DNA from: a virus
Taxonomy: Duplodnaviria > Heunggongvirae > Uroviricota > Caudoviricetes
DNA length: 25,447 nucleotides
Reading direction: 5' to 3' (one strand)
IMG/VR virus record: IMGVR_UViG_2734482783_000014
The notes under the pieces are model-generated. The model did not search any database and was not told the DNA's origin. It saw only the letters and a list, made by a program, of their open reading frames with translations. Each line of letters starts with the position of its first letter. Within the stretch, counting starts at the first letter, position 1. Made by a program: the position numbers and the translations under genes. Of this stretch, positions 2,566 through 25,447 are shown piece by piece.

Positions 2566-2911
2566 TCTCTGCTCCTGTTGATACGGAAAGGGAAACAGGC
2601 ACACCGTTATTACGCCGCCCGGTCAGCCCCACCACCATTGAACCGTCAAAATTGCTGTTAATGGTGATGGATTCCAGCGTCAGCCGTGGCTCCCAGCGAC
2701 TCAGCGCCACATACACTGCCGACATGACCTGCAGGCGTAATGCCGGATTTTGTGGCTGGTCTATCAGTGCCGACAGCAGGGAACCATATTCCCGACGGGC
2801 AATGCGGCTACCCTGCGGCGTCAGCAGAATGTCCCGCACCGACTGGCGCAGATGGTCAATATCAGTAATGGCTTTACCGCTGGTATTATTCATCCCGCTA
2901 TAAAGTGTCAT
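2552..2911 (-). CDS. W: Baseplate wedge protein gpW-like (GPW/gp25 family)
   Basis: 119-aa ORF between V and J. Start ATG at 2911 overlaps the V stop (ATGA coupling). Confidence 0.75.
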   Translation of the reverse strand: MTLYSGMNNTSGKAITDIDHLRQSVRDILLTPQGSRIARREYGSLLSALIDQPQNPALRLQVMSAVYVALSRWEPRLTLESITINSNFDGSMVVGLTGRRNNGVPVSLSVSTGAENGSD

Positions 2912-3486
2912 ACCGGGCCTCCGGTGGTATCGCCGCCTTTCAGGACGCCAGTATGCTGATGCGCATCAACCACGATCCCGTTAGAACTCATTGCACCGCC
3001 ACTCTGGGTAACACCACCATTGATCACCACTTCGCTGTTAATACGCGTGCGGTCAGCCTCCAGCACAAACTCACTGGTTTTCAGGGTGATGTTGTCGACG
3101 GCCTCAATGACCATAGATTTGATGCCCCTGACATACCAGCGCCCGGTGGCGGGTTCGTATTCAAACCAGCCACCGTCAGGATGTTCTGTCACGCAGGCGT
3201 CCGCCGACTTCGACGGTGGTGCGAACTGATTCGAATAGACAGCGGGCAGCGCAAAGGCAGTTTCAAGATTGCCTCCCAGACTCAGCAGCACCACCTGCTC
3301 ACCTTCCGATGGTCGCCACCATGTGCGGGCATTACCGGCACGCAGCGTCAGCCAACTGATCCAGTTAGTTTCAAGGTCGCCCGTTTTCACCCGGCAAAGC
3401 CAGTTTTCCCGGTCCACTTCGGTGACTACACCTGTGCGGATCAGGTTGGTGATAAGGCGCATGATTTCGGTTAGTTGTGCGTTCAT
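2908..3486 (-). CDS. V: Baseplate spike/assembly protein gpV-like
   Basis: 192-aa ORF in the expected position; Gly-rich C-terminus is typical of gpV-like spike proteins. ATG at 3486. Confidence 0.75.
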   Translation of the reverse strand: MNAQLTEIMRLITNLIRTGVVTEVDRENWLCRVKTGDLETNWISWLTLRAGNARTWWRPSEGEQVVLLSLGGNLETAFALPAVYSNQFAPPSKSADACVTEHPDGGWFEYEPATGRWYVRGIKSMVIEAVDNITLKTSEFVLEADRTRINSEVVINGGVTQSGGAMSSNGIVVDAHQHTGVLKGGDTTGGPV

Positions 3487-3589
3487 AACGTGATGATTGT
3501 TATAGACACACGAAAAAAATTCGCTATTGTTGCTTTGTATGAGAAATCACACAAAACACGGTCAATTATTGAACAAAAAAGGAATCCCA

Positions 3590-4435
3590 ATGGCTACTGT
3601 TGTTTCTTTGATAAACATGAAAGGTGGTGTAGGTAAGTCGACTCTAACTGTAAACTTAGCTTGGCACTACTCATGCTATAATAACTGGAAAAAAAACGTA
3701 CTCGTTGTTGATTTGGATCCGCAATTTAACGCAAGTCAGTACTTAATCGGCACACAAAAATATCAGCAAAATGTCATCATTGATAAAAAACCGACTGTTT
3801 GGGAAATATTTGAGCAGCATACAAGAACACCTATGGGCAAACCGAATAAAGTTGACCCTAACGATGCTATTATTCGCGCCGTAACATTTACAAATGGTTG
3901 CTATATAGATTTATTACCTTCTAGGTTAGAGCTTGCATTATCTTTAAAAAGCCCCGGACAGAAGGTTGAATTACTTCGTAAAGCATTAAAAAAAGTTGAG
4001 GACAAGTATGATCTCATAATTATTGACTGTGCCCCAACCGAATCAATATTAACAACAGCGGCGTATTTAGCTAGTGACTACATACTTGTACCAGTAAAAC
4101 CAGAGTATTTATCAACAATAGGCTTACCATTACTAGTAAATTCAATGAATGACTTTCTTGGGGAACATGAGGATTCTAACTTAAAACTTGCAGGCATTGT
4201 ATTCAATGCCTGCTCAGGATATCAACCAGAAGAAATTAAATCACAAGATAGCGTAAGAGAATTAGCAAAGAAAAATGGCTGGAATGTTTTTGATTCTGAA
4301 ATAATCTATTCAAAATCTTATCCTAAAGGAGCCAGGGAAGGAAAACCTATTTTCAGAACATCATATGCTCGCACTACTTCAGCAAATAACTTTGCTAAAT
4401 TTGCTAATGAGTTCGCTAAAACGATAGGTCTATAA
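3590..4435 (+). CDS. ParA/MinD-family deviant Walker-A ATPase (cargo gene)
   Basis: ATG at 3590 preceded by an AAGGA RBS. The N-terminus MATVVSLINMKGGVGKSTLTVNLA carries the KGGxGK[ST] deviant Walker A motif, and IIIDCAP is a Walker B-like hydrophobic-Asp segment. Markedly AT-rich compared with the flanking tail genes. Confidence 0.8.
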   Translation: MATVVSLINMKGGVGKSTLTVNLAWHYSCYNNWKKNVLVVDLDPQFNASQYLIGTQKYQQNVIIDKKPTVWEIFEQHTRTPMGKPNKVDPNDAIIRAVTFTNGCYIDLLPSRLELALSLKSPGQKVELLRKALKKVEDKYDLIIIDCAPTESILTTAAYLASDYILVPVKPEYLSTIGLPLLVNSMNDFLGEHEDSNLKLAGIVFNACSGYQPEEIKSQDSVRELAKKNGWNVFDSEIIYSKSYPKGAREGKPIFRTSYARTTSANNFAKFANEFAKTIGL

Positions 4436-4437
4436 GT

Positions 4438-4974
4438 ATGACAACTAGCTCAGAGAAAAAAACATTTACTTTGTTGAGTGAGATTTTCTCATTGATTGCA
4501 AAGTATGGAGAAGAAAACTTCTACAATGCCATATCGAAACTCAACGATCCTGAACTTGTTAAGTCATTAAATCAAGTTAAAAGTGCAGCTATCACAAGAA
4601 AGCAAAGTGTAAAGAGCAGCAAGCACATTGTATCCACATCGAAAAAACCTACCGATATGCTTAATATAGATTTGGTAAATAATATCAAAAATCATTTAAG
4701 CAACATTAGAGTTTTCAAAGAAACAAAAGATGTAAGGAGCTATCTCGAAAACCAGAAATTCGTTAACCCTGACTTATTGAACAAAAGAAGTCGCCAGCAA
4801 ATGATCAGCACATTTTGCAAGCAATGTAGCTACCTAACCACTGAGACTTTAGAGTTAGTTATAAGTGAGTTAGAGAGAAAGCCACTTCATGGTCATACTC
4901 ATAAAGATGACAGAAGCCTTGAAAATTGGTCAGATATAATATTAAAAAAAGATAATAAAGCGAACGACATTTAA
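4438..4974 (+). CDS. Hypothetical 178-aa basic protein, translationally coupled partner of the ParA-like ATPase
   Basis: Starts 2 bp after the ParA-like stop with the same AT-rich composition. Lys/Ser-rich, no recognisable motif, no ParB-like signature. Confidence 0.6.
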   Translation: MTTSSEKKTFTLLSEIFSLIAKYGEENFYNAISKLNDPELVKSLNQVKSAAITRKQSVKSSKHIVSTSKKPTDMLNIDLVNNIKNHLSNIRVFKETKDVRSYLENQKFVNPDLLNKRSRQQMISTFCKQCSYLTTETLELVISELERKPLHGHTHKDDRSLENWSDIILKKDNKANDI

Positions 4975-4981
4975 TCAACAA

Positions 4982-5014
4982 GGTCACCAGCTTATCCTTT
5001 CGAATCTGGTGACC
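4982..5014. terminator. Inverted repeat (ggtcaccag ... ctggtgacc), probable bidirectional terminator between the convergent cargo operon and gene S
   Basis: 9-bp perfect stem at 4982..4990 and 5006..5014 with a 15-nt loop, lying between two convergent stop codons. Flanking U-runs are weak. Confidence 0.4.
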
Positions 5015-5061
5015 TATTAAATAAGAAAAAAAATAAAATCCAATAGACTTTATTTTAAGAG

Positions 5062-5511
5062 TTATTTCCAGTTCAATTCTTGAATTAAAGTATCAAGCAC
5101 TATGTCGTGAACCTCTCTATTTCTACCAAGTAGTCTCCTACTTGCATATCTCACCTCCGGTCCTTTGCGACTAACGCGATCACGCAGGCCATAATGATGA
5201 ACACGGGCAATGCGCTGTACCTTACCTTCAAACTGCACGCTGGCAGAATCGGCGCTGGCGGCAGTTTTCAGGTATTTTGTGGTGCGCAGCTTTGCAAACA
5301 TCTGACGTTTGATACGGCCTTTTTTACTGCGTGCTGTTAACCGTCGCGGTTCATAGCTGCTGCCGTCAGGATTGCGCTGCATCCTGATATTCTGCTGCTG
5401 TGTCCGGCGCAGTTCCTGCGCCAGCTGGCGCATCATACGGCTTCTTGCGGCTGGCTCCAGATTCGCCAGCAAGGCACTCAGCCAGTCGTCCACTTTCTGC
5501 AGTTCAGCCAC
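5062..5511 (-). CDS. S: Tail completion protein gpS-like
   Basis: 149-aa ORF (MAELQKVDDWLSALLANLEPAARSRMMRQLAQELRRT...) of P2 gpS size and position. Start is GTG at 5511, overlapping the R stop. Confidence 0.75.
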   Translation of the reverse strand: MAELQKVDDWLSALLANLEPAARSRMMRQLAQELRRTQQQNIRMQRNPDGSSYEPRRLTARSKKGRIKRQMFAKLRTTKYLKTAASADSASVQFEGKVQRIARVHHYGLRDRVSRKGPEVRYASRRLLGRNREVHDIVLDTLIQELNWK

Positions 5512-6459: not shown

Positions 6460-6833
6460 GCTGCTACCTGTTGCGCCATCTGGTTACGAGTGATCCAGAA
6501 GGCAATAACGGTCAGCAGATAAAATACCAGGGTAATGGCCCACCCCGTCCAGGCGAGACTTACGATAATCAGCAATCGCATAACCCAGCTGATAAATACG
6601 TTTTCTTTTCGGGTAATGCTCTTCAGCAAAGATGCCCTCAACTCCTGCCAGAGCGGGCCGTTCTTAATTAACGCAACCAGTGCTACCGGAATTGCCACCC
6701 ATGTCAGCAGACAGGCTACCCAGACACCGGACGCTGCCAGTACCGGAAAAATCCCCTGTGGATACACCATTGCTGCGATTAACAGCGCCATCCATAACAT
6801 CAGAAACAGTCCGCTGATTAATTTCTTTTTCAT
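6456..6833 (-). CDS. lysA: LysA-like multi-pass membrane protein (lysis timing)
   Basis: Start MKKKLISGLFLML... at 6833, immediately after the K stop. Several hydrophobic helices. The longer ORF to 6905 would overlap K. Confidence 0.55.
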   Translation of the reverse strand: MKKKLISGLFLMLWMALLIAAMVYPQGIFPVLAASGVWVACLLTWVAIPVALVALIKNGPLWQELRASLLKSITRKENVFISWVMRLLIIVSLAWTGWAITLVFYLLTVIAFWITRNQMAQQVAA

Positions 6834-6834
6834 T

Positions 6835-7347
6835 TCAGTTTGCTCCCTGTAAGCACCAGGCCATCTCCCGCGCACGGCGGTTATCCAGCCCCTGATTAAA
6901 CACACCTTTCACATAAACCCAACGCGGCAACTGTCGGCACGCATCTGCCCAGCGCCGCTGATAGAGTAATTTCACCAGTGTGGAACTGCAGGCATTGCCC
7001 GTTCCCACGTTGAAGGCAAACGACACCGTAGCGTCATATACCTTCTGCGGCGGCTGTTGCTTCACACACCTTTCCAGCGCCCGCTCCACACGCAGCACGT
7101 TGGAAATCAGCCCTTCTGCTGCCTGTCGTTCCGTAATGGTTTTGCCGGGAATGACGCCAGACGTGTTACCAATGCCGTCGGTCCAGACACCCGCGCTGCA
7201 CTGATACGGCTGCAGACGACAGCCTTCGTAATCGGCAATCAGTTTCAGCCCCTCCACGGAGGTGTGAAGCTGCTGAAAACCCGGCAGCGTGGTAGCAATA
7301 GCCAGCACAGCCCCGACAAGGCAGCGTTTAACGACTGATGGATTCAT
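6835..7347 (-). CDS. K: Lysozyme (T4-lysozyme-like GH24 fold) with an N-terminal hydrophobic, possibly signal-anchor-release, segment
   Basis: Motif LIADYEGCRLQPYQCSAGVWTDGIGNT fits the Glu...Asp...Thr catalytic pattern of this fold. N-terminus VVKRCLVGAVLAIATTLPG is hydrophobic. Strong GGGAGG RBS before ATG at 7347. Confidence 0.8.
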   Translation of the reverse strand: MNPSVVKRCLVGAVLAIATTLPGFQQLHTSVEGLKLIADYEGCRLQPYQCSAGVWTDGIGNTSGVIPGKTITERQAAEGLISNVLRVERALERCVKQQPPQKVYDATVSFAFNVGTGNACSSTLVKLLYQRRWADACRQLPRWVYVKGVFNQGLDNRRAREMAWCLQGAN

Positions 7348-8309: not shown

Positions 8310-8960
8310 TCAGCGGCTGTCATTGCGCAGTCTGCGCTCCAGCTGCTGTTTGTCTTTTTTCACGCCACAGCGGGGATCGAGCTGTAACGCATGGTTGAGA
8401 TGATTAAGGGCAGACGCCGGATTGCTTTCACTCAGGACAGCGCCAATCGCTTTATGCAGACGCGCCCGTGACTGGTCCGGCATATCCAGACCGTCTGTCA
8501 GCTCCAGCGTCTGCAGCAACAGATCGGCATCAAAGCCGGTGGCGGCAAGCATTGCGCTCTGCGCTGCGTCTGCCATTTCCTCTGCCAGCACGGTCTGCAC
8601 GTTGCGGTTACCCAGTGGCATCACCCAGCCATGACGCAGGGCATGACGCCCGATCTCCAGCGCCCCGGCATAGTCTCCGGCATCAATGCGCCACAGCATC
8701 ACGTACATCAGCACGTCATCCTGTTGAGTGCCTCCGGCAGCCAGGACACCCTCTGCCCAGGCGGCGTACTTCGGCAGCAGCTCCACCTTTATTTCCGCTT
8801 TTTTCACCGTGGACTGAACGCCCTTGAGACGGCGGCGGTCTTCCGCCAGTTGCAGCAGCATCAGGTCATAGCCCGACGCGTGGCGAACGCTGCCGCCCTC
8901 GCGGGCGGCCTGTTCAGCCTGAACGCGCAGGCGATGCTGCCGTGCGGGACTCAGGCTCAT
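8310..8960 (-). CDS. M: Terminase small/endonuclease subunit gpM-like
   Basis: 216-aa ORF directly downstream of N in the P2 O-N-M-L order. ATG at 8960. Confidence 0.75.
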   Translation of the reverse strand: MSLSPARQHRLRVQAEQAAREGGSVRHASGYDLMLLQLAEDRRRLKGVQSTVKKAEIKVELLPKYAAWAEGVLAAGGTQQDDVLMYVMLWRIDAGDYAGALEIGRHALRHGWVMPLGNRNVQTVLAEEMADAAQSAMLAATGFDADLLLQTLELTDGLDMPDQSRARLHKAIGAVLSESNPASALNHLNHALQLDPRCGVKKDKQQLERRLRNDSR

Positions 8961-11014: not shown

Positions 11015-12781
11015 ATGAACACCACACTGACACCCGCAGATCTCGATCCCCGTAGGCAGGCCATGCTGCTGTACTTTCAGGGATACCGCGTAGCCCGCAT
11101 TGCTGAAATGCTGGGCGAGAAAGTTGCAACCGTTCACAGCTGGAAGAAACGCGACAAGTGGGGTGACTATGGGCCGCTGGATCAGATGCAGCTCACCACC
11201 GCCGCCCGCTACTGCCAGCTCATTATGAAGGAGCACAAAGAAGGGAAAGATTTCAAAGAGATTGACCTGCTGGCGCGCCAGTCGGAGCGCCATGCACGGA
11301 TCGGCAAGTTTAACAATGGCGGCAACGAAGCCGACTTAAACCCTAACGTCGCCAACCGCAACAAAGGCCCACGCCGTCAGCCGGAAAAGAATGTTTTCAC
11401 CGATGAACAGATTGAAAAGCTGGAGGAAATCTTCCATTCCTCCATGTTCAACTACCAGCGCCACTGGTGGGAAGCCGGAAAAACCAATCGCATCCGTAAC
11501 CTGCTGAAGTCTCGCCAGATCGGCGCGACCTTCTATTTTGCCCGTGAAGCCCTGATTGACGCCCTGCTGACCGGACGTAACCAGATTTTCCTTTCTGCCA
11601 GTAAGGCTCAGGCCCACGTCTTTAAACAGTACATCATCGACTTCGCCAAAGAAGTCGAAGTGGAGCTGAAAGGCGATCCGATGGTGCTTCCCAACGGGGC
11701 CACGCTTTACTTCCTCGGCACCAATGCCCGCACGGCGCAGAGTTACCACGGCAACCTGTATCTGGATGAATATTTCTGGATACCGAAATTCCAGGAGCTG
11801 CGCAAAGTGGCTTCCGGTATGGCTATTCACAAGAAATGGCGACAGACCTATTTTTCCACGCCATCCAGCCTGACCCACAGTGCTTATCCGTTCTGGTCCG
11901 GTGCGCTGTTCAACCGTGGACGCAACAAAGCCGACAAGGTGGACATCGACCTGTCCCACAGCAATCTGGCCCCCGGCCTGCTGTGCGCAGACGGGCAATA
12001 CCGCCAGATAGTCACCGTGGAAGATGCAGTGCGCGGCGGCTGTAACCTGTTCGACCTTGACCAGTTGCGCATGGAGTACAGCCCGGATGAATACCTGAAC
12101 CTGCTGATGTGCGAGTTCGTGGACGATCTCGCGTCCGTGTTTCCGCTCAGCGAGCTGCAGGCGTGCATGGTGGACAGCTGGGAAGTCTGGACCGACTTTC
12201 ATGCACTGGCCCTTCGCCCGTTTGGCTGGCGCGAAGTGTGGATCGGTTATGACCCGGCAAAAGGTACGCAGAACGGCGACAGCGCCGGATGCGTGGTGGT
12301 GGCACCGCCAGCCGTGCCGGGCGGTAAGTTCCGCATTCTTGAGCGTCACCAGTGGCGCGGGATGGACTTCCGCGCCCAGGCTGACGCCATCAAAAAACTG
12401 ACCGAACAGTACAACGTGACCTACATCGGTATCGACTCAACCGGCGTTGGTCACGGGGTTTATGAGAACGTGAAAGCATTCTTTCCTGCCGTCCGGGAGT
12501 TTGTCTACAACCCCAACGTTAAAAACGCCCTGGTGCTCAAGGCCTACGACATTATCAGCCACCGCCGTCTGGAGTTTGACGCCGGACACACCGACATAGC
12601 GCAGTCATTCATGGCAATCCGTCGCGCCACCACCGCCAGCGGCAACCGCCCGACCTATGAAGCCAGCCGCAGCGAAGAAGCCAGCCATGCCGATCTGGCC
12701 TGGGCAACAATGCACGCACTGTTTAACGAACCGCTGCAGGGCGAATCCGCCAATACCAGCAATATTGTGGAGATTTTTTGA
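11015..12781 (+). CDS. P: Terminase large (ATPase) subunit gpP-like
   Basis: 588-aa ORF divergent from O, of the size and position of P2 gpP. Stop overlaps the Q start (TGATG). Confidence 0.9.
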   Translation: MNTTLTPADLDPRRQAMLLYFQGYRVARIAEMLGEKVATVHSWKKRDKWGDYGPLDQMQLTTAARYCQLIMKEHKEGKDFKEIDLLARQSERHARIGKFNNGGNEADLNPNVANRNKGPRRQPEKNVFTDEQIEKLEEIFHSSMFNYQRHWWEAGKTNRIRNLLKSRQIGATFYFAREALIDALLTGRNQIFLSASKAQAHVFKQYIIDFAKEVEVELKGDPMVLPNGATLYFLGTNARTAQSYHGNLYLDEYFWIPKFQELRKVASGMAIHKKWRQTYFSTPSSLTHSAYPFWSGALFNRGRNKADKVDIDLSHSNLAPGLLCADGQYRQIVTVEDAVRGGCNLFDLDQLRMEYSPDEYLNLLMCEFVDDLASVFPLSELQACMVDSWEVWTDFHALALRPFGWREVWIGYDPAKGTQNGDSAGCVVVAPPAVPGGKFRILERHQWRGMDFRAQADAIKKLTEQYNVTYIGIDSTGVGHGVYENVKAFFPAVREFVYNPNVKNALVLKAYDIISHRRLEFDAGHTDIAQSFMAIRRATTASGNRPTYEASRSEEASHADLAWATMHALFNEPLQGESANTSNIVEIF

Positions 12782-13815
12782 TGGGAAAGAGTAAGAAAAA
12801 CCGCGCTGCGTCGACGAACCAGATTCAGCATAAAAGCCAGACTTCAGCCGAAGCATTCAGCTTTGGCGATCCCATTCCAGTACTGGACCGCCGCGAACTG
12901 CTGGACTATGTGGAATGCGTACAGACGGATCGCTGGTATGAGCCACCCGTAAGTTTTGACGGACTGGCGCGCACCTTCCGCGCTGCCGTGCATCACAGTT
13001 CCCCGATTGCCGTAAAGTGCAACATTCTGACCAGTACCTACATCCCTCACCCGCTGCTCAGCCAGCAGGCTTTTTCACGTTTTGTGCAGGACTATCTGGT
13101 ATTTGGTAACGCCTACCTGGAGAAACGCACGAACCGATTCGGTGAAGTTATCGCCCTTGAGCCTACTCTGGCAAAATACACCCGACGCGGATTAGACCTG
13201 GATACCTACTGGTTTGTGCAATACGGCATGACCACGCAGCCGTATCAGTTCACGAAAGGCAGCATCTTTCATCTGATGGAACCGGACATCAACCAGGAGA
13301 TCTACGGCCTGCCCGGTTATCTTTCTGCCATTCCGTCAGCCCTGCTCAACGAATCCGCCACGCTGTTCCGCCGCAAGTATTACATTAACGGTAGTCATGC
13401 AGGCTTCATCATGTACATGACCGATGCCGCGCAGAACCAGGAGGATGTGAACAACCTCCGCAATGCGATGAAAAGCGCCAAAGGCCCTGGTAACTTCCGC
13501 AATCTGTTTATGTACTCGCCTAACGGCAAAAAGGACGGACTTCAGATTATCCCGTTGTCAGAAGTCGCAGCGAAGGATGAGTTTCTGAATATCAAAAACG
13601 TGAGCCGTGACGACATGATGGCGGCACACCGTGTGCCGCCTCAGATGATGGGGATTATGCCGAATAATGTTGGGGGTTTTGGGGATGTGGAGAAGGCTAG
13701 TAATGTATTTGTACGCAATGAACTAATACCATTGCAAAAAAGATTTGAAGAGTTAAATGTTTGGTTAAAAGAAAAAGTGATACAGTTCGAAGAATATAAA
13801 CTTCATTCAAATTAG
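12781..13815 (+). CDS. Q: Portal protein gpQ-like
   Basis: ATG at 12781 (the tabulated ORF begins 3 nt earlier at TTG). 344 aa, following P. The last ~150 bp are AT-rich. Confidence 0.85.
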   Translation: MGKSKKNRAASTNQIQHKSQTSAEAFSFGDPIPVLDRRELLDYVECVQTDRWYEPPVSFDGLARTFRAAVHHSSPIAVKCNILTSTYIPHPLLSQQAFSRFVQDYLVFGNAYLEKRTNRFGEVIALEPTLAKYTRRGLDLDTYWFVQYGMTTQPYQFTKGSIFHLMEPDINQEIYGLPGYLSAIPSALLNESATLFRRKYYINGSHAGFIMYMTDAAQNQEDVNNLRNAMKSAKGPGNFRNLFMYSPNGKKDGLQIIPLSEVAAKDEFLNIKNVSRDDMMAAHRVPPQMMGIMPNNVGGFGDVEKASNVFVRNELIPLQKRFEELNVWLKEKVIQFEEYKLHSN

Positions 13816-13847: not shown

Positions 13848-15098
13848 TTATCGCCATTTTAGATAAAAAGCAAAAAATGGATCAGTAATATGCAACTTTC
13901 GGTCCTCCTTATCCCAATCTATTACAGGAGTTGAAGCTTCTTCCGTAGCAGCTATTTTAGCCATTTTTTCTATAACACGAGTAACCTCATGAGCTTGTGG
14001 AGGAGTATCTTGCACCAGTTCGCGTATGGCTGATCTTAACTCCTCATACTGAATACTTTGCATTCCTGGTTTCATATGTGACAATGCATATAATACAACT
14101 TTATATATATCTACTTCCTCACCACTTTTCAGTTTTCTAGGAATTCTGTCAGTTCGCTGATTAGGGCCACTAGCTAACTTATCAAATACTATTTTCCCAG
14201 TGGATTCTGCAACCTTTCTAAAAATATCATCATCTAAAGAATTAATAACTAACTTACTCGACAAAGTTTCTTTAACATTATTTGCTAAGCATATAGCCTT
14301 GCAAAACTCTTGCATTAAATGAGGACTTCCCAATGATTCATTGGCAATTTTATCAATTACTGAATCACTAACTTCCATGTTTAACAGAGGAAATCCCACT
14401 TTTGCTATTTGTTTTAGTTCATCCATTTCCCACGAAGGCATGGAAATATTTTCTAGCCGTCCGGTAATTTCTTTTTCAACTTTTACAGCATCATACCTTC
14501 GATGTGGAATGGCTATCAGTACAACTGGTACTCCATCAAAAACTAATGGTTTTATCGCTCTAATAAAGTTACCTTGTAGGTCACGATCGAGGTAATGAAA
14601 GTCATCAATTATAAGACTAGACTTGGTTTGAGAGAGAACTTTTAGTGCAGAACTTTTTGCGGATATCGTTCGCGATTTTTTATTACCATTTGACTTTCCA
14701 TCCGTCTGAACTAAACCAGCCTCACCTGTACCTTTAACAACTAATGCACTTGCGGTCCCCGATACCTTACCACTAACTGCAATAGCACTATTTTCTCCAG
14801 AATTAACTTCAATACTATGGTAGCCATTTAGTTTTTCTAATACCTGCTCCCAAATATCATCTTCAGTTGTAATACTCCCACCGTCAATCCATACAACATC
14901 ATCGTCCATGACTGGGAATACCATTCTTGTAATTACAGTCTTACCAGACTTTGTTTGCCCAGTTAAAGTTACTAACTTACATAAATTATCTTTAGCACTC
15001 TCCAGTTTTCCATGAACCTCTCCTTCAGAGCGCTCAACATAAGTCAATTTCGGCATACCGCCTGGCACAAAAACTTGTGAAGCACGTTGTTTATCCAT
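13848..15098 (-). CDS. P-loop NTPase, 416 aa, AAA+/STAND-like (cargo gene)
   Basis: Walker A GQTKSGKT and Walker B-like SSLIIDDFHYL, followed by a largely helical C-terminal half. AT-rich with an AT-rich upstream region at 15100..15190. Sits between Q and the putative cos site. Confidence 0.7.
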   Translation of the reverse strand: MDKQRASQVFVPGGMPKLTYVERSEGEVHGKLESAKDNLCKLVTLTGQTKSGKTVITRMVFPVMDDDVVWIDGGSITTEDDIWEQVLEKLNGYHSIEVNSGENSAIAVSGKVSGTASALVVKGTGEAGLVQTDGKSNGNKKSRTISAKSSALKVLSQTKSSLIIDDFHYLDRDLQGNFIRAIKPLVFDGVPVVLIAIPHRRYDAVKVEKEITGRLENISMPSWEMDELKQIAKVGFPLLNMEVSDSVIDKIANESLGSPHLMQEFCKAICLANNVKETLSSKLVINSLDDDIFRKVAESTGKIVFDKLASGPNQRTDRIPRKLKSGEEVDIYKVVLYALSHMKPGMQSIQYEELRSAIRELVQDTPPQAHEVTRVIEKMAKIAATEEASTPVIDWDKEDRKLHITDPFFAFYLKWR

Positions 15099-15205
15099 GA
15101 ATACTTCCCAATTAACACCGTTCTAGTGAACTACGATTCTAAAATAACATCTGAGCTTGGACTATTAACATTACATGATTTGAGTATTCAAAGCCACAAG
15201 CGCGC

Positions 15206-15224
15206 GCTCGTATCCCCGCCACGC
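15206..15224 (-). other. Candidate cohesive-end (cos) site
   Basis: Minus strand reads GGCGTGGCGGGGATACGAG. The first 13 nt match the 186 cos sequence GGCGTGGCGGGGAAAGCAT as I recall it (P2: GGCGAGGCGGGGAAAGCAC). Orientation relative to Q matches the P2 arrangement. The region is GC-normal between two AT-rich cargo blocks. Confidence 0.4.
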
Positions 15225-15270
15225 CTGCCCGCTTTATGTAGTGGTTTTCATGCAGATGCATGCTCTACGC

Positions 15271-15297
15271 AAAAGCCCGCCAGTTCTGGCGGGCTTT
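15271..15297. terminator. Rho-independent terminator (aaaaGCCCGCCagttctGGCGGGCtttt), bidirectional
   Basis: GC-rich 7-8 bp stem flanked by an A-run and a T-run, immediately downstream of the minus-strand three-gene operon. Confidence 0.55.
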
Positions 15298-15361
15298 TGC
15301 AAAAACGATCCTCAAACGATCATGCGATTTCATGCAGCATAGTCATGCAAAGTAGAAACTG

Positions 15362-15778
15362 CTATTTAACGTCCGGCGTTTGCGCTGTGGGGGATACTTT
15401 TCCATCTAGCGTATTTACAATTGAGAGGGGGTAAATTCCCATTTCAATTCCACAAATCACGTCGTAACGAGCCTGCGCTTTCTCTCGCATTTCTTGAGAA
15501 ACAGGGGACGATGGTGCATTTAAAACTGCTTCGGCTTGCTTCTTCAGAGCTTTCAACCGTCTTTTCAGTTTGATTTCTTGCGGATCAACAGCATAAATCG
15601 TCCATGCAAAAGTAAAAACTTCGCTTAAAAGAATTGACACCATCGGTATTGAAGCAATGTAAAGGTCTTTCCATGTTGGATCTGTAATGAAGCTAGCCAG
15701 CTTTATTAGGAAAAGGCCTACGCCGCCGCCACCAGTAACACCGACTGCTTTACCGCTTGTTTTCTTTTGTTCAGGCAT
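15362..15778 (-). CDS. Small membrane protein with two predicted TM helices (third gene of cargo operon)
   Basis: From ATG at 15778: MPEQKKTSGKAVGVTGGGGVGLFLIKLASFI... plus a second hydrophobic helix IASIPMVSILLSEVFTFAWTIYAV, then a charged C-terminus. Start overlaps the end of the upstream gene by 8 bp. Confidence 0.55.
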   Translation of the reverse strand: MPEQKKTSGKAVGVTGGGGVGLFLIKLASFITDPTWKDLYIASIPMVSILLSEVFTFAWTIYAVDPQEIKLKRRLKALKKQAEAVLNAPSSPVSQEMREKAQARYDVICGIEMGIYPLSIVNTLDGKVSPTAQTPDVK

Positions 15779-16034
15779 GAGAGGCTGACTCCTTCCTCTC
15801 ACGCTTATTTTTCTCTGCTATATCATCGATGAGCTTTATTAACTCATCATCATTGTTTATATAAATATTTGTTTTATAGACATTTTTGTTTGCATCAGTA
15901 TAAGTGATAGAAACTTTTGTTTCGACAATAACTCGATCGAGCAGGCTACGTATAGCCACTCTAGCACCTATAAATATAGCTGGAGCTGCAACAAGCAGCC
16001 CCAACCATCCTAACACACTAATATCTATAGACAT
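15771..16034 (-). CDS. Small single-TM protein, 87 aa (second gene of cargo operon)
   Basis: N-terminal helix ISVLGWLGLLVAAPAIFIGARVAI followed by a polar Asn/Asp/Lys-rich domain. Begins 2 bp after the upstream gene's stop. Confidence 0.55.
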   Translation of the reverse strand: MSIDISVLGWLGLLVAAPAIFIGARVAIRSLLDRVIVETKVSITYTDANKNVYKTNIYINNDDELIKLIDDIAEKNKRERKESASHA

Positions 16035-16036
16035 TT

Positions 16037-16930
16037 TTAATCCGCATCAGGTTTTATTTTTCTATCTTTGGCGGCAAAGTGTCGACCCACTTTGATGATC
16101 GATAACTTTTCGTCTACCTGGCCACCGGAATCTTTCACAATTTTCTTCATCTTCACAGCAAACAATTCGCCAAAAATTTTGGGGGCGTCTGGTCCAGTAA
16201 CAAGCTTGATGAACTCATTATCTTCCATTCTGACATTGCGCTTTTCACCGCCAAACTCAACACGCCAGCCACTTTTTTTGTCAGTATGCGCCGAAACGAA
16301 TGTCACGGTTGTTTCAAATTCGTCAACTTCTTCTTTGGTTTCAAAGAGAACTTTTGGCGACTTAAACTCTTCTGCCTCATCTTTATGAATTTTGAGGATT
16401 TCTTTCTTAGAGGTGCGCGATTTTTTTACCACAAAATTGTCGATACCATCTTGTAACAGAGGCTGTCTGACAAACGCGTCAACAGCCTTACGAATCTCTG
16501 GGGCATTAACGATTTTTTCGACATCTTCAGAGCAAACAATCTCTTCACCATCGACTTTCAGCTTAACTTTGTCACTACCGTTAGCTTTCTCGACTATGTC
16601 GATCTTACGCCCGTTAAGCTTCTTGAGAACCTCTAAAACTGTAGCACCGCCAACGGCTAAAGGAATGGCTGACAAACCTAAAATTTGTACAACATCTTTA
16701 GCATTAGCTAGATGTTGTACAACCTCAATATCAAACCCAAAGGAACCGGCTATCAATTCAGCGTCAACGTTAACTTCAATGTCTCGCCCTCCGTTTACAA
16801 TCTCATTTGCAGAGTAGATAGCCTCACCTAGCCCCTGCAAACTTTTCGCAAACGAAAGAATATCCATCTTATGATCGTCGAGAGCTTTGCCTTGATACAC
16901 AATACTTACTGATTGAGTCTTATCCGCCAT
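16037..16930 (-). CDS. Hypothetical soluble protein, ~297 aa (first gene of cargo operon)
   Basis: Long AT-rich ORF, Lys/Glu/Asp-rich, with no recognisable catalytic motif. ATG at 16930; the tabulated ORF starts at TTG 16951. Confidence 0.6.
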   Translation of the reverse strand: MADKTQSVSIVYQGKALDDHKMDILSFAKSLQGLGEAIYSANEIVNGGRDIEVNVDAELIAGSFGFDIEVVQHLANAKDVVQILGLSAIPLAVGGATVLEVLKKLNGRKIDIVEKANGSDKVKLKVDGEEIVCSEDVEKIVNAPEIRKAVDAFVRQPLLQDGIDNFVVKKSRTSKKEILKIHKDEAEEFKSPKVLFETKEEVDEFETTVTFVSAHTDKKSGWRVEFGGEKRNVRMEDNEFIKLVTGPDAPKIFGELFAVKMKKIVKDSGGQVDEKLSIIKVGRHFAAKDRKIKPDAD

Positions 16931-17066
16931 TGAGTTCAGATCCGTTGCCAATAAAATGCGCGCGATTTTACGCCCATCACTATGTTTAATCTATCTATTA
17001 ATCATTTATCCCTCTAGCTGTCTACTATCGGACTCAAAAAACATGACTCATTACAAACGAAACCTA

Positions 17067-17300
17067 TCAATGCAGCCAGCTGTCGTCTTCCCACACCTTC
17101 TGCATAATTTTCAGCACTTGTTTTCTTTCTTCGTCCAGTTGCAGTCCGGTCAGTTCCACACCGTTAGAGCTACCTTTGCGGATACGAATTACCGTTTTGG
17201 GATACAGGAGGCGCAGATTGCGGTAAAGCTCGGATTCAAGGGCATCCAGGGTAGACTGGCTAATCTTCTGCTCTTTATCGATCATTATTTCAATGCGCAT
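17067..17300 (-). CDS. dinI: DinI-family protein (DNA-damage-inducible protein I-like)
   Basis: From ATG at 17300: MRIEIMIDKEQKISQSTLDALESELYRNLRLLYPKTVIRIRKG...ELTGL...QKVWEDDSW, the DinI pattern (MRIE... start, acidic C-terminus). GAGGTG RBS. Confidence 0.75.
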   Translation of the reverse strand: MRIEIMIDKEQKISQSTLDALESELYRNLRLLYPKTVIRIRKGSSNGVELTGLQLDEERKQVLKIMQKVWEDDSWLH

Positions 17301-17310
17301 AAAAGTCACC

Positions 17311-17499
17311 TCAGCTGATGACATCCATTGAGCGGTTGTATTCGTGGGTTCTGATTTTTGCCATGAGTTCATCTGTCAGTTCAGAAACCCACTGCAGAGC
17401 CAGCCCCTTCTCTTCATCACTACACTCACTAGCCGCTACAAGCTTAAGAAAAAAATCAATGCGCTGTAGCTTCAAAGACTCCAAAAAATAGTCCTGCAT
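17311..17499 (-). CDS. Small SOS-regulated ORF (62 aa), in the position of the 186 tum antirepressor but much shorter
   Basis: Perfect AGGAGG RBS 4 nt before ATG at 17499. A LexA box overlaps the predicted -10 upstream. Function is inferred from position only. Confidence 0.45.
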   Translation of the reverse strand: MQDYFLESLKLQRIDFFLKLVAASECSDEEKGLALQWVSELTDELMAKIRTHEYNRSMDVIS

Positions 17500-17539
17500 C
17501 TTTCCTCCTATGACACCAAAGCAATACTGTATGCATAAC

Positions 17540-17651: not shown

Positions 17652-20066
17652 TTAATACAGGTTCCGCCACTTATCATCTTCCTGCAAACGCTGGTTCCGA
17701 TAGAAGATACGCAGGCCTGCTCCTGACGGAATACTGCCGCCGCGAAGGAGTAAATCGACCTCTTTCTCGCTACCATCAAATCCTCTGGACTTCAGCTCAT
17801 AGACGAGCTGCAGTCGCTGATGGTCTGTAATTCGCTGTTTGTAGTCTTTACGCCGTTTCGGTTTAACCAGGCGTAACCTTGCAGCCAGTTCCCGGCGCTC
17901 TTTTTTGCTCATACTGTGCAGGTAATCGTGCAACTCCTTGTCATCCATGCGGGTAATGTCCGTTCTGGTGTCCCCATCAGCTGATTTGTCTTTCCCTTGT
18001 TGGTTCAAATTTTCAGCAAGGGGACAGTTATTGCCACGAGTCCAAGGGGCGCAAGCGCCCTGGTCGGCTGCCGCCTCCTGAACGTCAACGGCCTTACGAA
18101 CCATTTTCCACTTCACTGCATGAGTGCAGATCTTGCCCTCTGCAATGGGTGACCAGATGCCATAAATACGAATACCGTGATCGCCATAGGCGGTTGGCTC
18201 TTCGTTGATTTCATAAGCGGTTCTGATGAGGTGATATTTGCGGGGAACCAGTACGCCGCCCTGCTTCATGATGTAGGTGGCAAAACAACCAGCATCAGCA
18301 GCAGCCAGGATGGCATCAAGGCGCGGGTTATCCAGTACCGGCGCACCTGCTTTTTTGTCACCCTGTTGCCTTGCCGCCTGACCAGCCAGCAATCGCAGTT
18401 CACGGTAAGCCTGACGCCCCGGAATGCCAAAGAAGCGGAATTGCTGAACACGATGCAGAGACGCCCAGGCATTAACGTATTCAGCGTTATCACGCAGGGA
18501 TTTACCCGTTTCCTTACTGATCTCGCCAGCCAGACCACGCCCGTCAATATTCTTACTGATATATTTCGCAATGTAGCTTGTCGGCGTTCCTTTGCGCGGG
18601 TTTATCAGCTCAGACTTAAAGCGCGGCCCCGTGTTATTGCCCAGCTCCTCGCGGTCTTCACGGATGGCAAACTTACGCAACAATGCAGTAATGGCGCGGC
18701 GGTCTTTTTTGCGCATGAAACACAACAGGTGCCAGTGAACTGTGCCGTCATGATGCGGCTCAGCCACCCGCACGCCATACCAGCGCAACCCGGCTTTGTG
18801 CATAGCCTTACGAAATGCAGCAAACATACCGACCAGATAATCACTGCTTTGTCTTACCGTCGCATTTGTCCAGGTCGGGTTGGGCCTGCCGTTATTTAGC
18901 GTGGAATGGAAACGTGACGGGCAGGTGATGGTGTAGAAAACGGCGCAGTCACCACGCATTTCCGCGATAAGCTCCAGACCTTTAACACAGGCCATCATCT
19001 CATTGCGGCGATGCGCAGGGTTGCTGCTGCTGGCGTTTACCACGTCTTCCATATCCAGCGTGTCGCCGTCTTCGTTCACCAGTTCATGAGAACGGAAAAA
19101 CTCCAGCGACTTACGGCGCTGCTCACGTTTATGCATCACGGCTTCATAGCTGACATAGGGAGATGCTTTTTTGCTGACCAGGCAAACAGCACGCAACTGC
19201 TCTTCCCGCCATTCGCAACGCATCTTCCATAATTTCCGATACCACCAGTCGGCGCATAACATACGCGCCAGCGAACCCGGAATGAGTTCATAAGGCACGG
19301 GTTTACGGCGGTTTCTTTTCCGACAGAGTTGCTCAAACGCAGGCGGGATAACATCCAGACGCAGGGTTTCCGCTGCCACCTTTTCCCATGTCTTGCGGAT
19401 TTCTTCTGGCGTAACATCATCGGTGGCATACAAATCGCCACAAGCTGTATCAAGGCACATGCTCATATGCGCAGCTACCAAGGTGGACAGGCGTTTCACC
19501 TGATCCTGACTCATTTCAGGCAGGATCAGCAGGCCGTCCAGCCCTTCATGGCTTGCCATAAAGCGAAAAGAAGTGGATAGCTGACTGTCGCGTACATGCT
19601 CCAGTCGTTCCAAGCATGGCTTAATCGTCTCACGCAAATAGCGGGAATAAGCCTTTGGCCTGCCCAGGCTGCTGAAGTATTTAATACGTTGCATCAGCGG
19701 CTTGCTGATATGGGAAGGCTGGGCGTTGACGTCCGCCAGAATGGCCATGTCTGGATTAAAACGCTGCTGCTCATGCGCCAGCTTTGCCCGGCTAATTAGC
19801 TTATCCTGCTCCATTTCGCGTTGGACAGGATCACGGGATTCATTAAAGAAATAACGCTCCCAGACCTGATCACTCAGTGCCTCGCGGCGCAGTTGTTCCT
19901 GCTCGTTATCGGCAGCGTACAGAGTGATCAGGTTTGAAAGCGCAGAAACCGGCGCAACTTCCGCCGGGTCCAGATAAGGGTTAATGGCCTTTTTCGGGCT
20001 GTTCCATGAGAATGCTGCGGCGACCTCGTTAAAGCCGCTGCAGTTGTTCATATCAGCATGGCTCAT
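17652..20066 (-). CDS. A: Replication initiation protein gpA-like (rolling-circle nickase)
   Basis: Contains [15 protein letters not shown] and [13 protein letters not shown], the metal-binding and active-site tyrosine motifs of P2 A-family initiators. ATG at 20066 overlaps the Dam stop (ATGA); the longer ORF extends to 20093. Confidence 0.9.
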
Positions 20067-20920
20067 GCACGCACTCCGTACACGACGGAACAATCCACGC
20101 CACGCGAAGGATCAAATCCTACCCAGCAGCGCGGCCCGGAAACAGCGATGATTTCTGTTGCAGATTTACTCTCACCAGCTGCCACGCCGATGCTGCGTTT
20201 TGCCTTGATGTAGTGGTGAGTAAAATTGCGATACAGCGAACGGATCAGGGATGTGTCACTGTTAGAAACAATGACCGGATGACCTTCAGATGATCGATGT
20301 TCAAGAACGGATGCCAGGTGATACTGGTCATCTTCAGTGAAGCCATCAGTGTGATAGCCGGAAAACGTACCGTCATAAGGCGGATCGCAATACACCACAT
20401 CCCCCGCCTTCAACATCGCCAGCGTTTCATCAAAGCTGGCGCAGATAAACGTTGCCCGCTGGGCTTTCTCTGCAAATGCGCGAATTTCTTTTTCAGGGAA
20501 ATACGGATTTTTATAATTACCGTAGGGAATGTTGAAATACCCGCTCTTGTTATAGCGACATAGCCCACGGTAACCATGACGATTGAGATACAGAAAATAT
20601 ACCGCTTTCATGAAATCAGTAATTTCAGTGGAGTAATTAAACTCCTGCCTTATGTTGTAATAAGCCACCTCTCTGTTTGCTTCCTCAAATAAAGCTCTGG
20701 CACGAGATATAAACGCCTCACAATCAGCAGCAACCTTTTTATAGAGGTTGATTAAATCAGGATTAATATCCGAAACCAGATAGCTGGGGTAATCCGTCTC
20801 CATCATCACAGCACAAGAACCCGCGAAAGGTTCAACCAGTCGCGTGCCAGCAGGAAGGTATTTTTTCAGTTCGGACATAATGGTGGTTTTATTACCCGCC
20901 CATTTCAGGATGGTGCTCAT
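20063..20920 (-). CDS. dam: DNA adenine (N6) methyltransferase, Dam family
   Basis: From ATG at 20920: [11 protein letters not shown]..., FAGSCAV, and the catalytic DPPY motif ([10 protein letters not shown]). AGGAGG RBS; start overlaps the upstream stop. Confidence 0.85.
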
Positions 20921-23284: not shown

Positions 23285-23429
23285 AAGGCAACATTCCTTC
23301 TAGATATGGCTTGTGGCGAGCCGTTGTTTGTCGTGATTAGTAGTGAAGGCTCCAAAAGAACACTTCTGGTTCAACTTTAAGATCGCTTTTGGAATCTGTC
23401 AACGAATTTTGGATTTCTTTGGAGGACTT
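23285..23429. promoter_or_regulatory. Immunity switch region between the Apl-like and CI genes (expected face-to-face lytic and lysogenic promoters and repressor operators)
   Basis: 145-bp intergenic region between divergent regulatory genes, containing a short direct repeat ttttgga (23392..23398 and 23406..23412). Individual promoter and operator elements were not resolved. Confidence 0.4.
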
Positions 23430-23999
23430 GTGGATTTCAATAGCGGCGGTAAGAAAGCCATAGAACGTTTAGTTGAAGCATATGGGTTCGGTACTCGTCA
23501 GGCTCTCTGTGATCATTTAGGTGTTTCTAAGAGCACCATGGCAACGCGCTATATGCGTGATATTTTTCCAGCAGATTGGGTAATCCAGTGCGCCCTTGAA
23601 ACGGGCACCTCGCTTAATTGGCTAACAACAGGGCATGGTTCAAAGCAAGCATCAGCAAATACAAATACTATAGAAGTAGAAAAATATTTATTGTCTGATG
23701 GAGCATTGCAGAAAGACGGTTTTTATATTTTTGATAAGGGATTTCTACCCTCTACGTTTAAAAAACCTTTTGTCATCACAGATAACAATTCTGAATTTAT
23801 TTGTGATAAAGAATTTGATGATATACGTGATGGTAAATGGGTAATAAGTATTGATGGCGAAATAACGATCCGTGACATTACTCGTTTACCCGGTGGAAGA
23901 ATCTTCGTCGAGGGTGGAAACAGAGCCTTCGAATGCAAGATAGAAGACATTGAAATAATTGGTAAAATTATAAGTTTAACAGTCAAGTATGTTAAATAG
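23430..23999 (+). CDS. cI: 186-type CI immunity repressor
   Basis: From GTG at 23430 (GGAGG just upstream): ...IERLVEAYGFGTRQALCDHLGVSKSTMATRYMRD...CALETGTSLNWLTTGHG aligns with the recalled 186 CI N-terminal domain (LDRICEAYGF...CALETGANLKWLLTGEG). 189 aa versus 192 in 186. The longer ORF from 23343 has no start support. Confidence 0.75.
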   Translation: MDFNSGGKKAIERLVEAYGFGTRQALCDHLGVSKSTMATRYMRDIFPADWVIQCALETGTSLNWLTTGHGSKQASANTNTIEVEKYLLSDGALQKDGFYIFDKGFLPSTFKKPFVITDNNSEFICDKEFDDIRDGKWVISIDGEITIRDITRLPGGRIFVEGGNRAFECKIEDIEIIGKIISLTVKYVK

Positions 24000-24014
24000 T
24001 ACCGGGAGGAAACT

Positions 24015-24206
24015 ATGCTTGGTAAGGTATTTTTTGTGGTTTTGTCATGTTCTTTGTTATTAAACCCACTAACTACCTATGCTAGAAATTATCCCTGCTC
24101 AGGGAAAAAGGGAGGTGTTTCTCACTGTACCTCAGATGGCAAATTCGTTTGCAATGATGGAACTATTAGTAAATCCAAAAAAATCTGTACTAAAAACTCA
24201 CGATAA
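24015..24206 (+). CDS. Small secreted Cys-containing protein (63 aa) between cI and int
   Basis: Strong GGGAGGA RBS. N-terminal signal-peptide-like segment [23 protein letters not shown], then a ~40-aa mature region with four Cys and many Lys. Confidence 0.5.
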
Positions 24207-24394
24207 CTTTTGTTTTTATATCTGCGTCTAAAATAAAAATGAGCCGCAGGTTAACCGCAAAAGTTACATGCTCACATAGCAAAAAGAATAGCCAACTTCA
24301 TTATGGCTTCAGTGAGATGTATGGTCGTAGGATTTCATACATTGACACTGGTTATACATACAGTAAAAATGCTCTCTACTGGAGGGCATTTTTT

Positions 24395-25447
24395 ATGGCA
24401 GTACGAAAACTCACCACAGGGAAATGGCTTTGCGAATGTTACCCCGCCGGACGAAGTGGGCGTCGTGTGCGTAAACAATTCGCCACCAAAGGCGAAGCTC
24501 TGGCTTTTGAGCGTCACACGATGGAAGAAACCGAATCAAAGCCCTGGCTGGGCGAATCAGTGGATCGTCGAACCCTGAAAGACGTGGTTGAGCTATGGTT
24601 CAAACTACATGGTAAATCTCTGACTGCTGGACAGCATGTCTATGACAAATTGCTGCTGATGGTTGACGCTCTAGGCAATCCTCTTGCAACCGATCTCACC
24701 TCTAAAATGTTTGCCCACTATCGAGATAAACGCCTGACAGGCGAGATCTACTTCAGCGAGAAATGGAAGAAAGGAGCAAGCCCGGTCACCATTAACCTGG
24801 AGCAAAGCTATCTAAGTAGTGTTTTTAGCGAACTATCCCGTCTGGGCGAATGGTCGTATCCGAACCCACTGGAGAACATGCGAAAATTCACCATCGCAGA
24901 AAAAGAGATGGCATGGCTTACCCATGAGCAGATTGTTGAATTGCTGGCTGATTGCAAACGTCAGGACCCAATTCTGGCACTGGTAGTTAAGATATGCTTA
25001 AGCACAGGCGCACGCTGGCGTGAAGCCGTAAATCTTACCCGCTCACAGGTGACCAAATACCGAATTACCTTTGTCAGAACGAAGGGGAAGAAAAACAGAA
25101 GCATCCCTATCAGTAAAGAGCTTTACGAAGAGATCATGGCGCTTGATGGGTTCAATTTCTTCACAGACTGCTATTTTCAATTTTTATCCGTGATGGAAAA
25201 AACGTCTATCGTGCTCCCTCGCGGTCAACTCACACACGTTCTGCGCCATACGTTTGCGGCGCACTTCATGATGTCGGGTGGAAACATTCTGGCCTTACAA
25301 AAAATTCTCGGACACCACGATATAAAAATGACTATGCGTTACGCACATCTGGCACCGGATCATCTGGAAACGGCGCTCCGTTTCAATCCTCTGGCAACGC
25401 TGCCAAGTGGCGACAAAGTGGCGGCAGCGGTTGGCATTACCCCGTAA
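24395..25447 (+). CDS. int: Tyrosine integrase (P2/186 family)
   Basis: ATG at 24395 with a GGAGGG RBS. The C-terminus has the tyrosine-recombinase signature (...RHTFAAHFMMSGGNILALQKILGHHDIKMTMRYAHL...). Stop TAA is the last codon of the window; the longer ORF from 24239 lacks an RBS. Confidence 0.9.
   Translation: MAVRKLTTGKWLCECYPAGRSGRRVRKQFATKGEALAFERHTMEETESKPWLGESVDRRTLKDVVELWFKLHGKSLTAGQHVYDKLLLMVDALGNPLATDLTSKMFAHYRDKRLTGEIYFSEKWKKGASPVTINLEQSYLSSVFSELSRLGEWSYPNPLENMRKFTIAEKEMAWLTHEQIVELLADCKRQDPILALVVKICLSTGARWREAVNLTRSQVTKYRITFVRTKGKKNRSIPISKELYEEIMALDGFNFFTDCYFQFLSVMEKTSIVLPRGQLTHVLRHTFAAHFMMSGGNILALQKILGHHDIKMTMRYAHLAPDHLETALRFNPLATLPSGDKVAAAVGITP

Follow-up and report, generated by a model that had tools for sequence, protein, structure and literature searches.

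A two-gene cassette lies between the tail genes V and S of a P2-like prophage represented by IMG/VR record IMGVR_UViG_2734482783_000014 (Caudoviricetes), whose 25,447 nucleotides (nt) are the window analyzed here. The cassette encodes a ParA-type ATPase and a 178-amino-acid (aa) partner. To judge from the loci compared, these are members of an autonomous, co-inherited two-gene family that crosses phyla and spreads as mobile-element cargo, in integron cassettes, integrase-bearing islands, toxin-antitoxin or defence islets, and P2-like prophages. The family is compact (two genes, ~1.4 kb) and sharply defined by one invariant partner motif. We tentatively favour, with a probability of about 40%, the reading that the pair is expressed in the lysogen and forms a module for conflict, exclusion or defence with a ParA switch at its core, a role that we infer from genomic context and from precedents.

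The two genes and the key motif are:
3590..4435, + strand, ParA/Soj-like ATPase, 281 aa (Pfam AAA_31 3e-35, CbiA 6e-16)
4438..4974, + strand, partner, 178 aa, isoelectric point (pI) 9.3, all-helical (AlphaFold2 model with nine helices and a predicted local distance difference test score, pLDDT, of 73)
4909..4944, + strand, C-terminal amphipathic helix motif of the partner, D158-R-S-L161-E-N-W164-S-D-I-I168-L, conserved in partners

The ATPase, called ParA below, starts at ATG 3590, with AGGA at 3580-3583 as ribosome-binding site. An alternative start at TTG 3527 was rejected, all homologues being 280-281 aa long and beginning MAxxVSLINMKGG. The protein scores 122 bits against Pfam AAA_31 (cutoff 27) and carries a Walker A motif with the signature lysine, KGGVGKST (nt 3620-3643), together with DLDPQ and a Walker B motif, LIIIDCAP; KGGVGKST, VVDLDPQ and LIIIDCAP are invariant in 33 family members, among which mean column identity is 74%. 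By these motifs ParA belongs to the ParA/MinD deviant Walker A superfamily, and the AAA_31 match and KGGVGKST bear out the initial annotation, which had called it a ParA-type ATPase of the deviant Walker A kind. The nearest solved structures by sequence are 8ray, Soj of Helicobacter pylori (HpSoj) and Soj of Thermus thermophilus (TtSoj); the Soj alignment covers the ATPase core to about residue 232, and the last 50 residues are family-specific. ParA presumably binds DNA. The best NCBIfam match is ParA_partition (NF041546), at 91 bits against a cutoff of 180, and all 19 matches in that collection fall below their own cutoffs. Among the best 120 relatives, all of 280-281 aa, identity to ParA is 64-96% (64-73% across phyla), and their sources include Vibrio, Pseudoalteromonas, Nostoc, Bacteroidia, Acidobacteria, Poribacteria and many metagenomes. 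Beyond phages, ParA relatives number in the thousands.

The ParA stop codon (TAA, 4433-4435) and the partner start codon (ATG 4438) are separated by a gap of 2 nt, as expected from the translational coupling that had been claimed for the pair. The partner is predicted to consist of an N-terminal helical domain (residues 1-50, with a KYG..F motif), a basic disordered linker (51-75), a second helical domain and the C-terminal motif. The same elements are common to the partners as a group: an N-terminal helical domain with LLxEIxxLxxKYGxxxF, a basic low-complexity linker, a second helical domain and a C-terminal DRSLExWSxIIL. Residues L161, W164 and I168 are invariant in 58 partners; the DRSLExW form is found in 36 loci, and more distant members have a degenerate SSLxxWSxII. 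We propose this helix as the element that may dock on ParA. All 42 partners analyzed are basic (pI 8.6-10.5).

The partner family is new. Literature on ParA-based defence systems and on integron-cassette function yielded no description of the ParA-partner family, and the partner has no match in Pfam, NCBIfam, PHROG, PADLOC or PDB sequences. Profile searches (Pfam, NCBIfam, PHROGs and PDB) gave no ParB, ribbon-helix-helix (RHH) or helix-turn-helix (HTH) signal nor any other centromere-binding signature, in agreement with the earlier observation that the partner lacks ParB features. When Foldseek compared the partner model (pLDDT 73) with PDB and viral structures, it returned only weak helical-bundle or CARD-like matches (E>0.3), an unconfirmed lead that assigns no fold. 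Protein searches with the single partner sequence retrieved 5 clusters, an all-against-representatives phmmer search 17 matches, and a 58-sequence profile 11 matches, the candidates being limited by word-sharing; all 11 profile matches are named ‘hypothetical protein’ and contain no Pfam domain.

Both genes are real and under purifying selection, and their alleles are old. Comparison of the window allele with those of loci L011 and L016, at a synonymous divergence (dS) of ~1, gave a ratio of nonsynonymous to synonymous divergence (dN/dS) of 0.02 for ParA and 0.23-0.25 for the partner, in which only the linker (codons 46-75) is near neutral. The partner is thus relaxed rather than positively selected; positive selection was considered and rejected on its overall dN/dS of ~0.24 and the restriction of near-neutrality to the linker. 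Five diverged alleles have both genes intact.

Relatives were collected in a sample of 80 metagenomic loci and several genomic ones. (A scan for related contigs with ParA as single query returned mostly generic ParAs, its patterns being too sequence-specific.) A coupled partner of 155-210 aa lies downstream of ParA in essentially all of the ~60 loci with enough sequence, and in most relatives the junction is an ATGA overlap. When neighbour proteins of 38 loci were compared all-vs-all, only ParA and the partner recurred, with no third gene. Distances among ParAs and among partners are correlated (Mantel r 0.52, 0/2000 permutations). In one metagenomic locus (L199:8001-9354) ParA is split into open reading frames (ORFs) of 84 and 211 aa beside an intact partner, which could reflect inactivation of ParA or misassembly.

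The exact partner occurs on ~80 contigs, all of them Escherichia coli P2-like prophages with the layout V / ParA + partner / S. Variants in the same slot include some from Citrobacter or E. coli (partner 65-69% identical), one from Pantoea (partner 30%, ParA 83%) and one IMG/VR contig (ParA 85%), the only close copy found in IMG/VR. The cassette DNA had no match by megablast against phages and complete E. coli genomes, nor by distant blastn against E. coli, and no family member was found in 5,426 complete E. coli genomes. Among 50,697 phage records, phage-plasmids included, the best ParA match is only 37% identical, and 72,556 PLSDB plasmids gave 0 matches for ParA at E<=1e-30 or for the partner at E<=1e-2.

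Relatives reside in several kinds of mobile DNA. In a Vibrio parahaemolyticus superintegron (L017), an array of 12-14 attC-like repeats, the module fills the interval between the repeats at 6727-6863 and 8335-8471 and is exactly one cassette; as an attC-bounded unit in an array it qualifies by its layout as an integron gene cassette, an assignment that holds for such relatives only. In Vibrio cholerae three distinct integron settings contain the module, with Phd/ParE, ParD/ParE, HNH and acetyltransferase cassettes around it. In island L218, beside smpB (ssrA-adjacent), it directly follows the integrase and is followed by Shufflon_N and MobA genes. It adjoins SocAB, an integrase-like gene and an insertion sequence in Leisingera, an RHH/ParE pair in Nostoc and an RHS toxin at one further locus; another locus places it in a defence-like island that also encodes SRA-HNH, HNH_2, a methylase and an SMC-like ATPase.

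We suggest the following mechanism. In the lysogen, a promoter belonging to the pair would drive its expression. ParA-ATP dimers would bind a universal surface, most likely nucleoid DNA, and the partner would dock on ParA via its C-terminal helix, which is amphipathic and invariant, and, aided by its basic linker, control ATP turnover and release. The pair would thereby protect the lysogen or element from superinfecting phages or other invading DNA, either by exclusion or by an abortive, toxin-antitoxin-like arrest when the balance between ParA and partner is disturbed, and would neither partition DNA nor build the tail. The invariance of all ATPase motifs and the purifying selection on both genes favour this reading. 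ParA/MinD ATPases are textbook positioning machines; a conflict role is nevertheless preferred over cargo positioning because the unit spreads alone to unrelated hosts and rides integron cassettes, islands and a prophage slot. There are also two precedents. A ParA-like prophage protein has recently been shown to block phages, namely the ParA/MinD/Soj-like (AAA_31) ATPase GiPD474 of the Gifsy-1 prophage, for which broad phage resistance was demonstrated experimentally (PMC12724215); and in ICEclc a ParA with the small non-ParB partner Shi stops host growth in a manner that depends on the ATPase (PMC6812849). If the family does serve defence or addiction, it would represent a mechanistic class of its own, in which immunity rests on a nucleoid-patterning ATPase.

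Several observations weigh against it. PADLOC-DB 2.0 gives ParA only PDC-M28B, at 7e-6 and over the P-loop alone (residues 5-43), and the partner nothing. No recognizable effector domain, such as a nuclease or pore, was found in the pair. Defence and toxin-antitoxin modules are usually common on plasmids too, unlike this family, which was not found there. For immune genes, the ParA dN/dS of 0.02 and ~65% cross-phylum identity are unusual. The C-terminal 50 residues of ParA do not align with Soj. Finally, of the 149 genes next to 38 environmental loci most have housekeeping functions. Restriction-modification or defence proteins number only a handful, a few methylases, DndC and DinG being present, and defence islands are not clearly enriched; guilt by association with defence genes appears moderate, not strong.

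Three rival explanations were weighed, each of them unlikely. In the first, the partner binds a centromere without being recognizable as such a protein, and the pair serves to segregate the element while it is extrachromosomal, as an excised prophage or island. Soj-like genes do this for some integrative elements, and the gene order, coupling and basic partner resemble type Ib par loci. The module adjoins the integrase in island L218, and its best NCBIfam match, though below cutoff, is ParA_partition. Putative partition systems have been reported in about a quarter of P2-like phages, at another hotspot (PMC9122126). A ParB-like partner with a repeat array nearby, the finding that the initial annotation would have taken as a plain partition module, was looked for and neither part was found. 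No repeat array was present in 3400-5150, and the 200-bp flanks of 46-47 family modules had no general excess of direct or inverted 7-mers (median z ~0); these scans were aimed at iterated arrays, so that a single site or a site inside coding sequence was outside their reach. Strong direct-repeat arrays were seen next to the module in 2 of ~47 loci (L135:1749-1948, z 36, upstream; L199:9355-9554, z 15, downstream). Of the marks of type I (ParABS) loci, neither a centromere-binding partner fold, nor iterated repeats by the operon, nor carriage on plasmids or phage-plasmids was observed. Plain partition is therefore unlikely, given a partner with no ParB, RHH or HTH signal, the lack of repeat arrays in or around the modules, the absence of matches among the plasmid and phage records, an NCBIfam score of 91 against a cutoff of 180, and a lifestyle as single integron cassette, in which partition has no role.

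The second, comparably improbable, is a pure addiction module with no antiviral role, in which DNA-locked ParA is toxic and the labile, partly disordered partner is the antidote, stabilizing a prophage, island or integron array. As a two-gene coupled operon on mobile elements, the pair has one of the defining traits of type II toxin-antitoxin modules. It occurs among the toxin-antitoxin cassettes of Vibrio integrons and next to ParE and SocAB pairs, its partner has a neutrally evolving linker predicted to be disordered, and one locus, L199, has a split ParA with an intact partner. On the other side, Pfam and other profile searches found no toxin or antitoxin domain, both proteins exceed the size usual in type II pairs, plasmids yielded no family member, and the lone split-ParA case may be an assembly error.

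The third, to which we likewise give a low probability, is a host cell-cycle or growth modulator, in which ParA on the nucleoid and its partner delay division or replication, for example during induction. In the integrative element ICEclc, ParA and a small non-ParB partner, Shi, arrest growth across proteobacteria; the two proteins interact and the Walker A motif is needed (PMC6812849). The pair matches ParA-Shi in overall layout and is likewise carried by an integrating element. However, Shi is an 85-aa, HicA-like protein and the partner a 178-aa, all-helical one with no HicA signal, so that homology of the two was rejected for their differences in size and fold. The cassette is directed away from the late operons, with no obvious induction-linked control, and for an integron cassette it would be expensive to carry an arrest module that acts constitutively. 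As for decaying passenger DNA with no function, the AT-richness and rarity of the cassette and its absence from 5,426 complete E. coli genomes would suit it, but the selection analysis effectively refutes it, with five diverged alleles intact at dS ~1 and dN/dS of 0.02 and 0.24; conservation of the family across phyla also speaks against it.

The S-V junction is a variable cargo slot. In its flanks the insert shares 95-97% identity with P2-like phages of Klebsiella and E. coli, KP12 among them, and in the closest of these (flanks ~96% identical) V and S are separated by a spacer of only 68 bp with no similarity to the window DNA. In P2 the interval holds, in order, a terminator after S, orf30 (261 aa, non-essential, opposite strand), an Ogr-type activator site and V; at this length orf30 does not merit the earlier description as small. 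Two further phages, RE-2010 of Salmonella and ST11-OXA245phi3.1 of Klebsiella, each have a different single uncharacterized gene here, in the same orientation as the cassette, and SopEPhi and others have no gene between S and V. The three other occupants, for which there is no Pfam or PADLOC assignment, are:
L022:940-1725, P2 Orf30, 261 aa
L209:1565-2416, RE-2010 protein, 283 aa
L210:1555-2247, ST11-OXA245phi3.1 protein, 230 aa

Since the nearest phages have only 68 bp and P2 and two others carry different genes, the cassette is an accessory operon between two late tail operons and not a core feature. The comparison of this interval across P2-like phages thus upholds the view of the cassette as a moron, and the varying slot content speaks against the alternative that it is a conserved structural feature of the lineage. 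By the same comparisons the cassette has been exchanged as an allele among P2-like phages, through recombination within V and S and not by point insertion, because the V late promoter and the S 3′ end belong to the variable segment. The junction is thus a second cargo slot of P2-like phages, whose alleles move with the S end and the V late promoter. The hotspot described by Rousset et al. is the cos-proximal A-Q region of P2 and does not cover the S-V slot (PMC9122126).

The composition and layout of the insert agree with this. The interval 3487-5061 is ~35% G+C (GC) within a 56% GC P2-like late region; by position, GC is 0.32-0.37 over 3451-5100 and 0.53-0.60 in the flanking P2-like late genes. 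Two + strand ORFs occupy the insert, the ParA-like gene and then the 178-aa partner gene, and V (2908-3486) and S (5062-5511) are both on the - strand. The GC drop, the ORFs and the flanks all confirm an AT-rich two-gene cassette within the tail cluster. Its orientation had been given as convergent to the tail genes, which is right toward S; with respect to V the cassette is divergent. The limits 3487-5061 proved too narrow, the foreign AT-rich DNA continuing into S to ~5150. The remaining elements of the segment are:
3487..3589, no strand, divergent control region of the cassette and the V late operon, dissimilar to the 68 bp that separate V and S in the closest phages
3503..3530, + strand, candidate sigma-70 promoter of the cassette, TAGACA-16 nt-TATTGT, 9/12 matches
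3536..3553, - strand, P2 Ogr-type late activator site TGT-N12-ACA (TGTATGAGAAATCACACA) for the V promoter, centred 58.5 nt upstream of the V ATG
4981..5015, no strand, hairpin 1 (AGGTCACCAG ... CTGGTGACCT), between the convergent cassette and S, 12/13 bp complementary
5030..5057, no strand, hairpin 2, AT-rich, with a U run after it on the - strand
5062..5150 (upper bound approximate), - strand, S 3′ end, its last ~27 codons part of the foreign AT-rich segment by the drop in identity to KP12

The initial annotation gave the cassette an upstream region of its own. Such a region exists (3487-3589), but it is common to the cassette and the divergent V late promoter. These 103 bp upstream of parA contain, by motif and spacing, a P2-type V late promoter: TGT-N12-ACA is centred 58.5 nt from the V ATG here and 55.5 nt in phage KP12, P2 annotation puts the activator site ~55 nt before V, and motif and spacing are kept in KP12 and in cassette variants L011, L016, L021 and L047. 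The sigma-70 assignment at 3503-3530 is weak. Its hexamers are kept in L011, L013 and L016, and sigma-70-like sites in the cassette region are no more frequent than expected by chance.

At the other end, the inverted repeat noticed earlier is present as hairpin 1, though that account was incomplete, this being the first of two hairpins. The stems of hairpin 1 are kept and its loops vary across L011, L013 and L016. Hairpin 2 looks like a putative terminator of the operon ending in S, and by P2 annotation a terminator occupies the same place in P2. The stretch from partner stop to S stop folds far more stably than shuffled sequence whichever strand is taken (+, -19.4 kcal/mol, z -4.2; -, -29.5 kcal/mol, z -6.0); a canonical terminator scan of the cassette region found no terminator despite these two strong hairpins, and Rfam had no RNA family match in 3300-5300. 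The last ~27 codons of S have 41-53% identity to KP12, against ~93% further in, and the S C-terminus here resembles that of cassette-bearing L011; the end of an essential gene has, on this evidence, been swapped along with the cargo. The C-terminus of the tail-completion protein S is accordingly a mosaic, ...GRNREVHDIVLDTLIQELNWK here and ...GVNDDVEAMTRDMILQWLAG in KP12, that co-varies with the cassette allele.

Elsewhere in the window, the cos-proximal hotspot, which has portal gene Q (12778-13815) on one side and replication gene A (17652-20093) on the other, shows a GC of 0.35-0.45 over 13848-17500. It encodes a 416-aa AAA_22-like protein matching PADLOC candidate PDC-S59 (4.6e-32), a 304-aa protein matching PDC-S42 (7.8e-44) and two uncharacterized small ORFs; related prophages have other cargo at this hotspot, e.g. 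DUF4145 or 216-aa and 61-aa genes. A CI-type repressor (Phage_CI_repr + CI_C, 23343-23999) and an integrase running from 24239 off the window end (together 23343-25447) mark what is, by gene content, the lysogeny end of the prophage. In cassette-bearing E. coli prophages L002-L005 (~3076-3972) a resolvase/invertase (Resolvase + HTH_7) adjoins tail-fibre and fibre-assembly genes, which suggests an invertible host-range segment.

Of the known systems, Soj/ParA-ParB and the type Ib systems (ParA-ParG, delta-omega) share with the pair a deviant Walker A ATPase and a small partner gene directly downstream; they differ in that the pair has no ParB, RHH or HTH signature, centromere repeats or plasmid carriage, and its ParA falls below the NCBIfam partition cutoffs. 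MinDE, McdAB and others are ParA/MinD cargo-positioning systems with short-peptide adaptors. They resemble the pair in their small, fast-evolving, partly disordered partner with a conserved short interaction motif, whereas here no cargo genes are linked, the motif is C-terminal and ParA keeps the signature lysine. In ICEclc, too, an integrating mobile element encodes a ParA together with a small protein other than ParB; there Shi is followed by parB, whereas no parB lies downstream of the 178-aa partner, and Shi is an analogue and not a homologue.

P2 orf30 has the same position and orientation as the cassette, with the S terminator on one side and the V late promoter on the other; no sequence relationship was found. 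Two other P2 genes, old and tin, are exclusion genes (PMC9122126); the non-essential genes old, tin and fun lie elsewhere in P2, not in the S-V slot. GiPD474 (WP_000368620.1) is a single gene with an extra uncharacterized domain in a lambdoid immunity region, whereas here there are two genes in the S-V slot. A tblastn search of ParA against phage records gave no Gifsy or Salmonella match, and neither GiPD474 nor ICEclc ParA-Shi is demonstrably homologous to the pair beyond the ParA fold. Within that fold GiPD474 and ParA meet the same relatives: the top structural neighbours of GiPD474, 8ray and HpSoj, are the top sequence neighbours of ParA.

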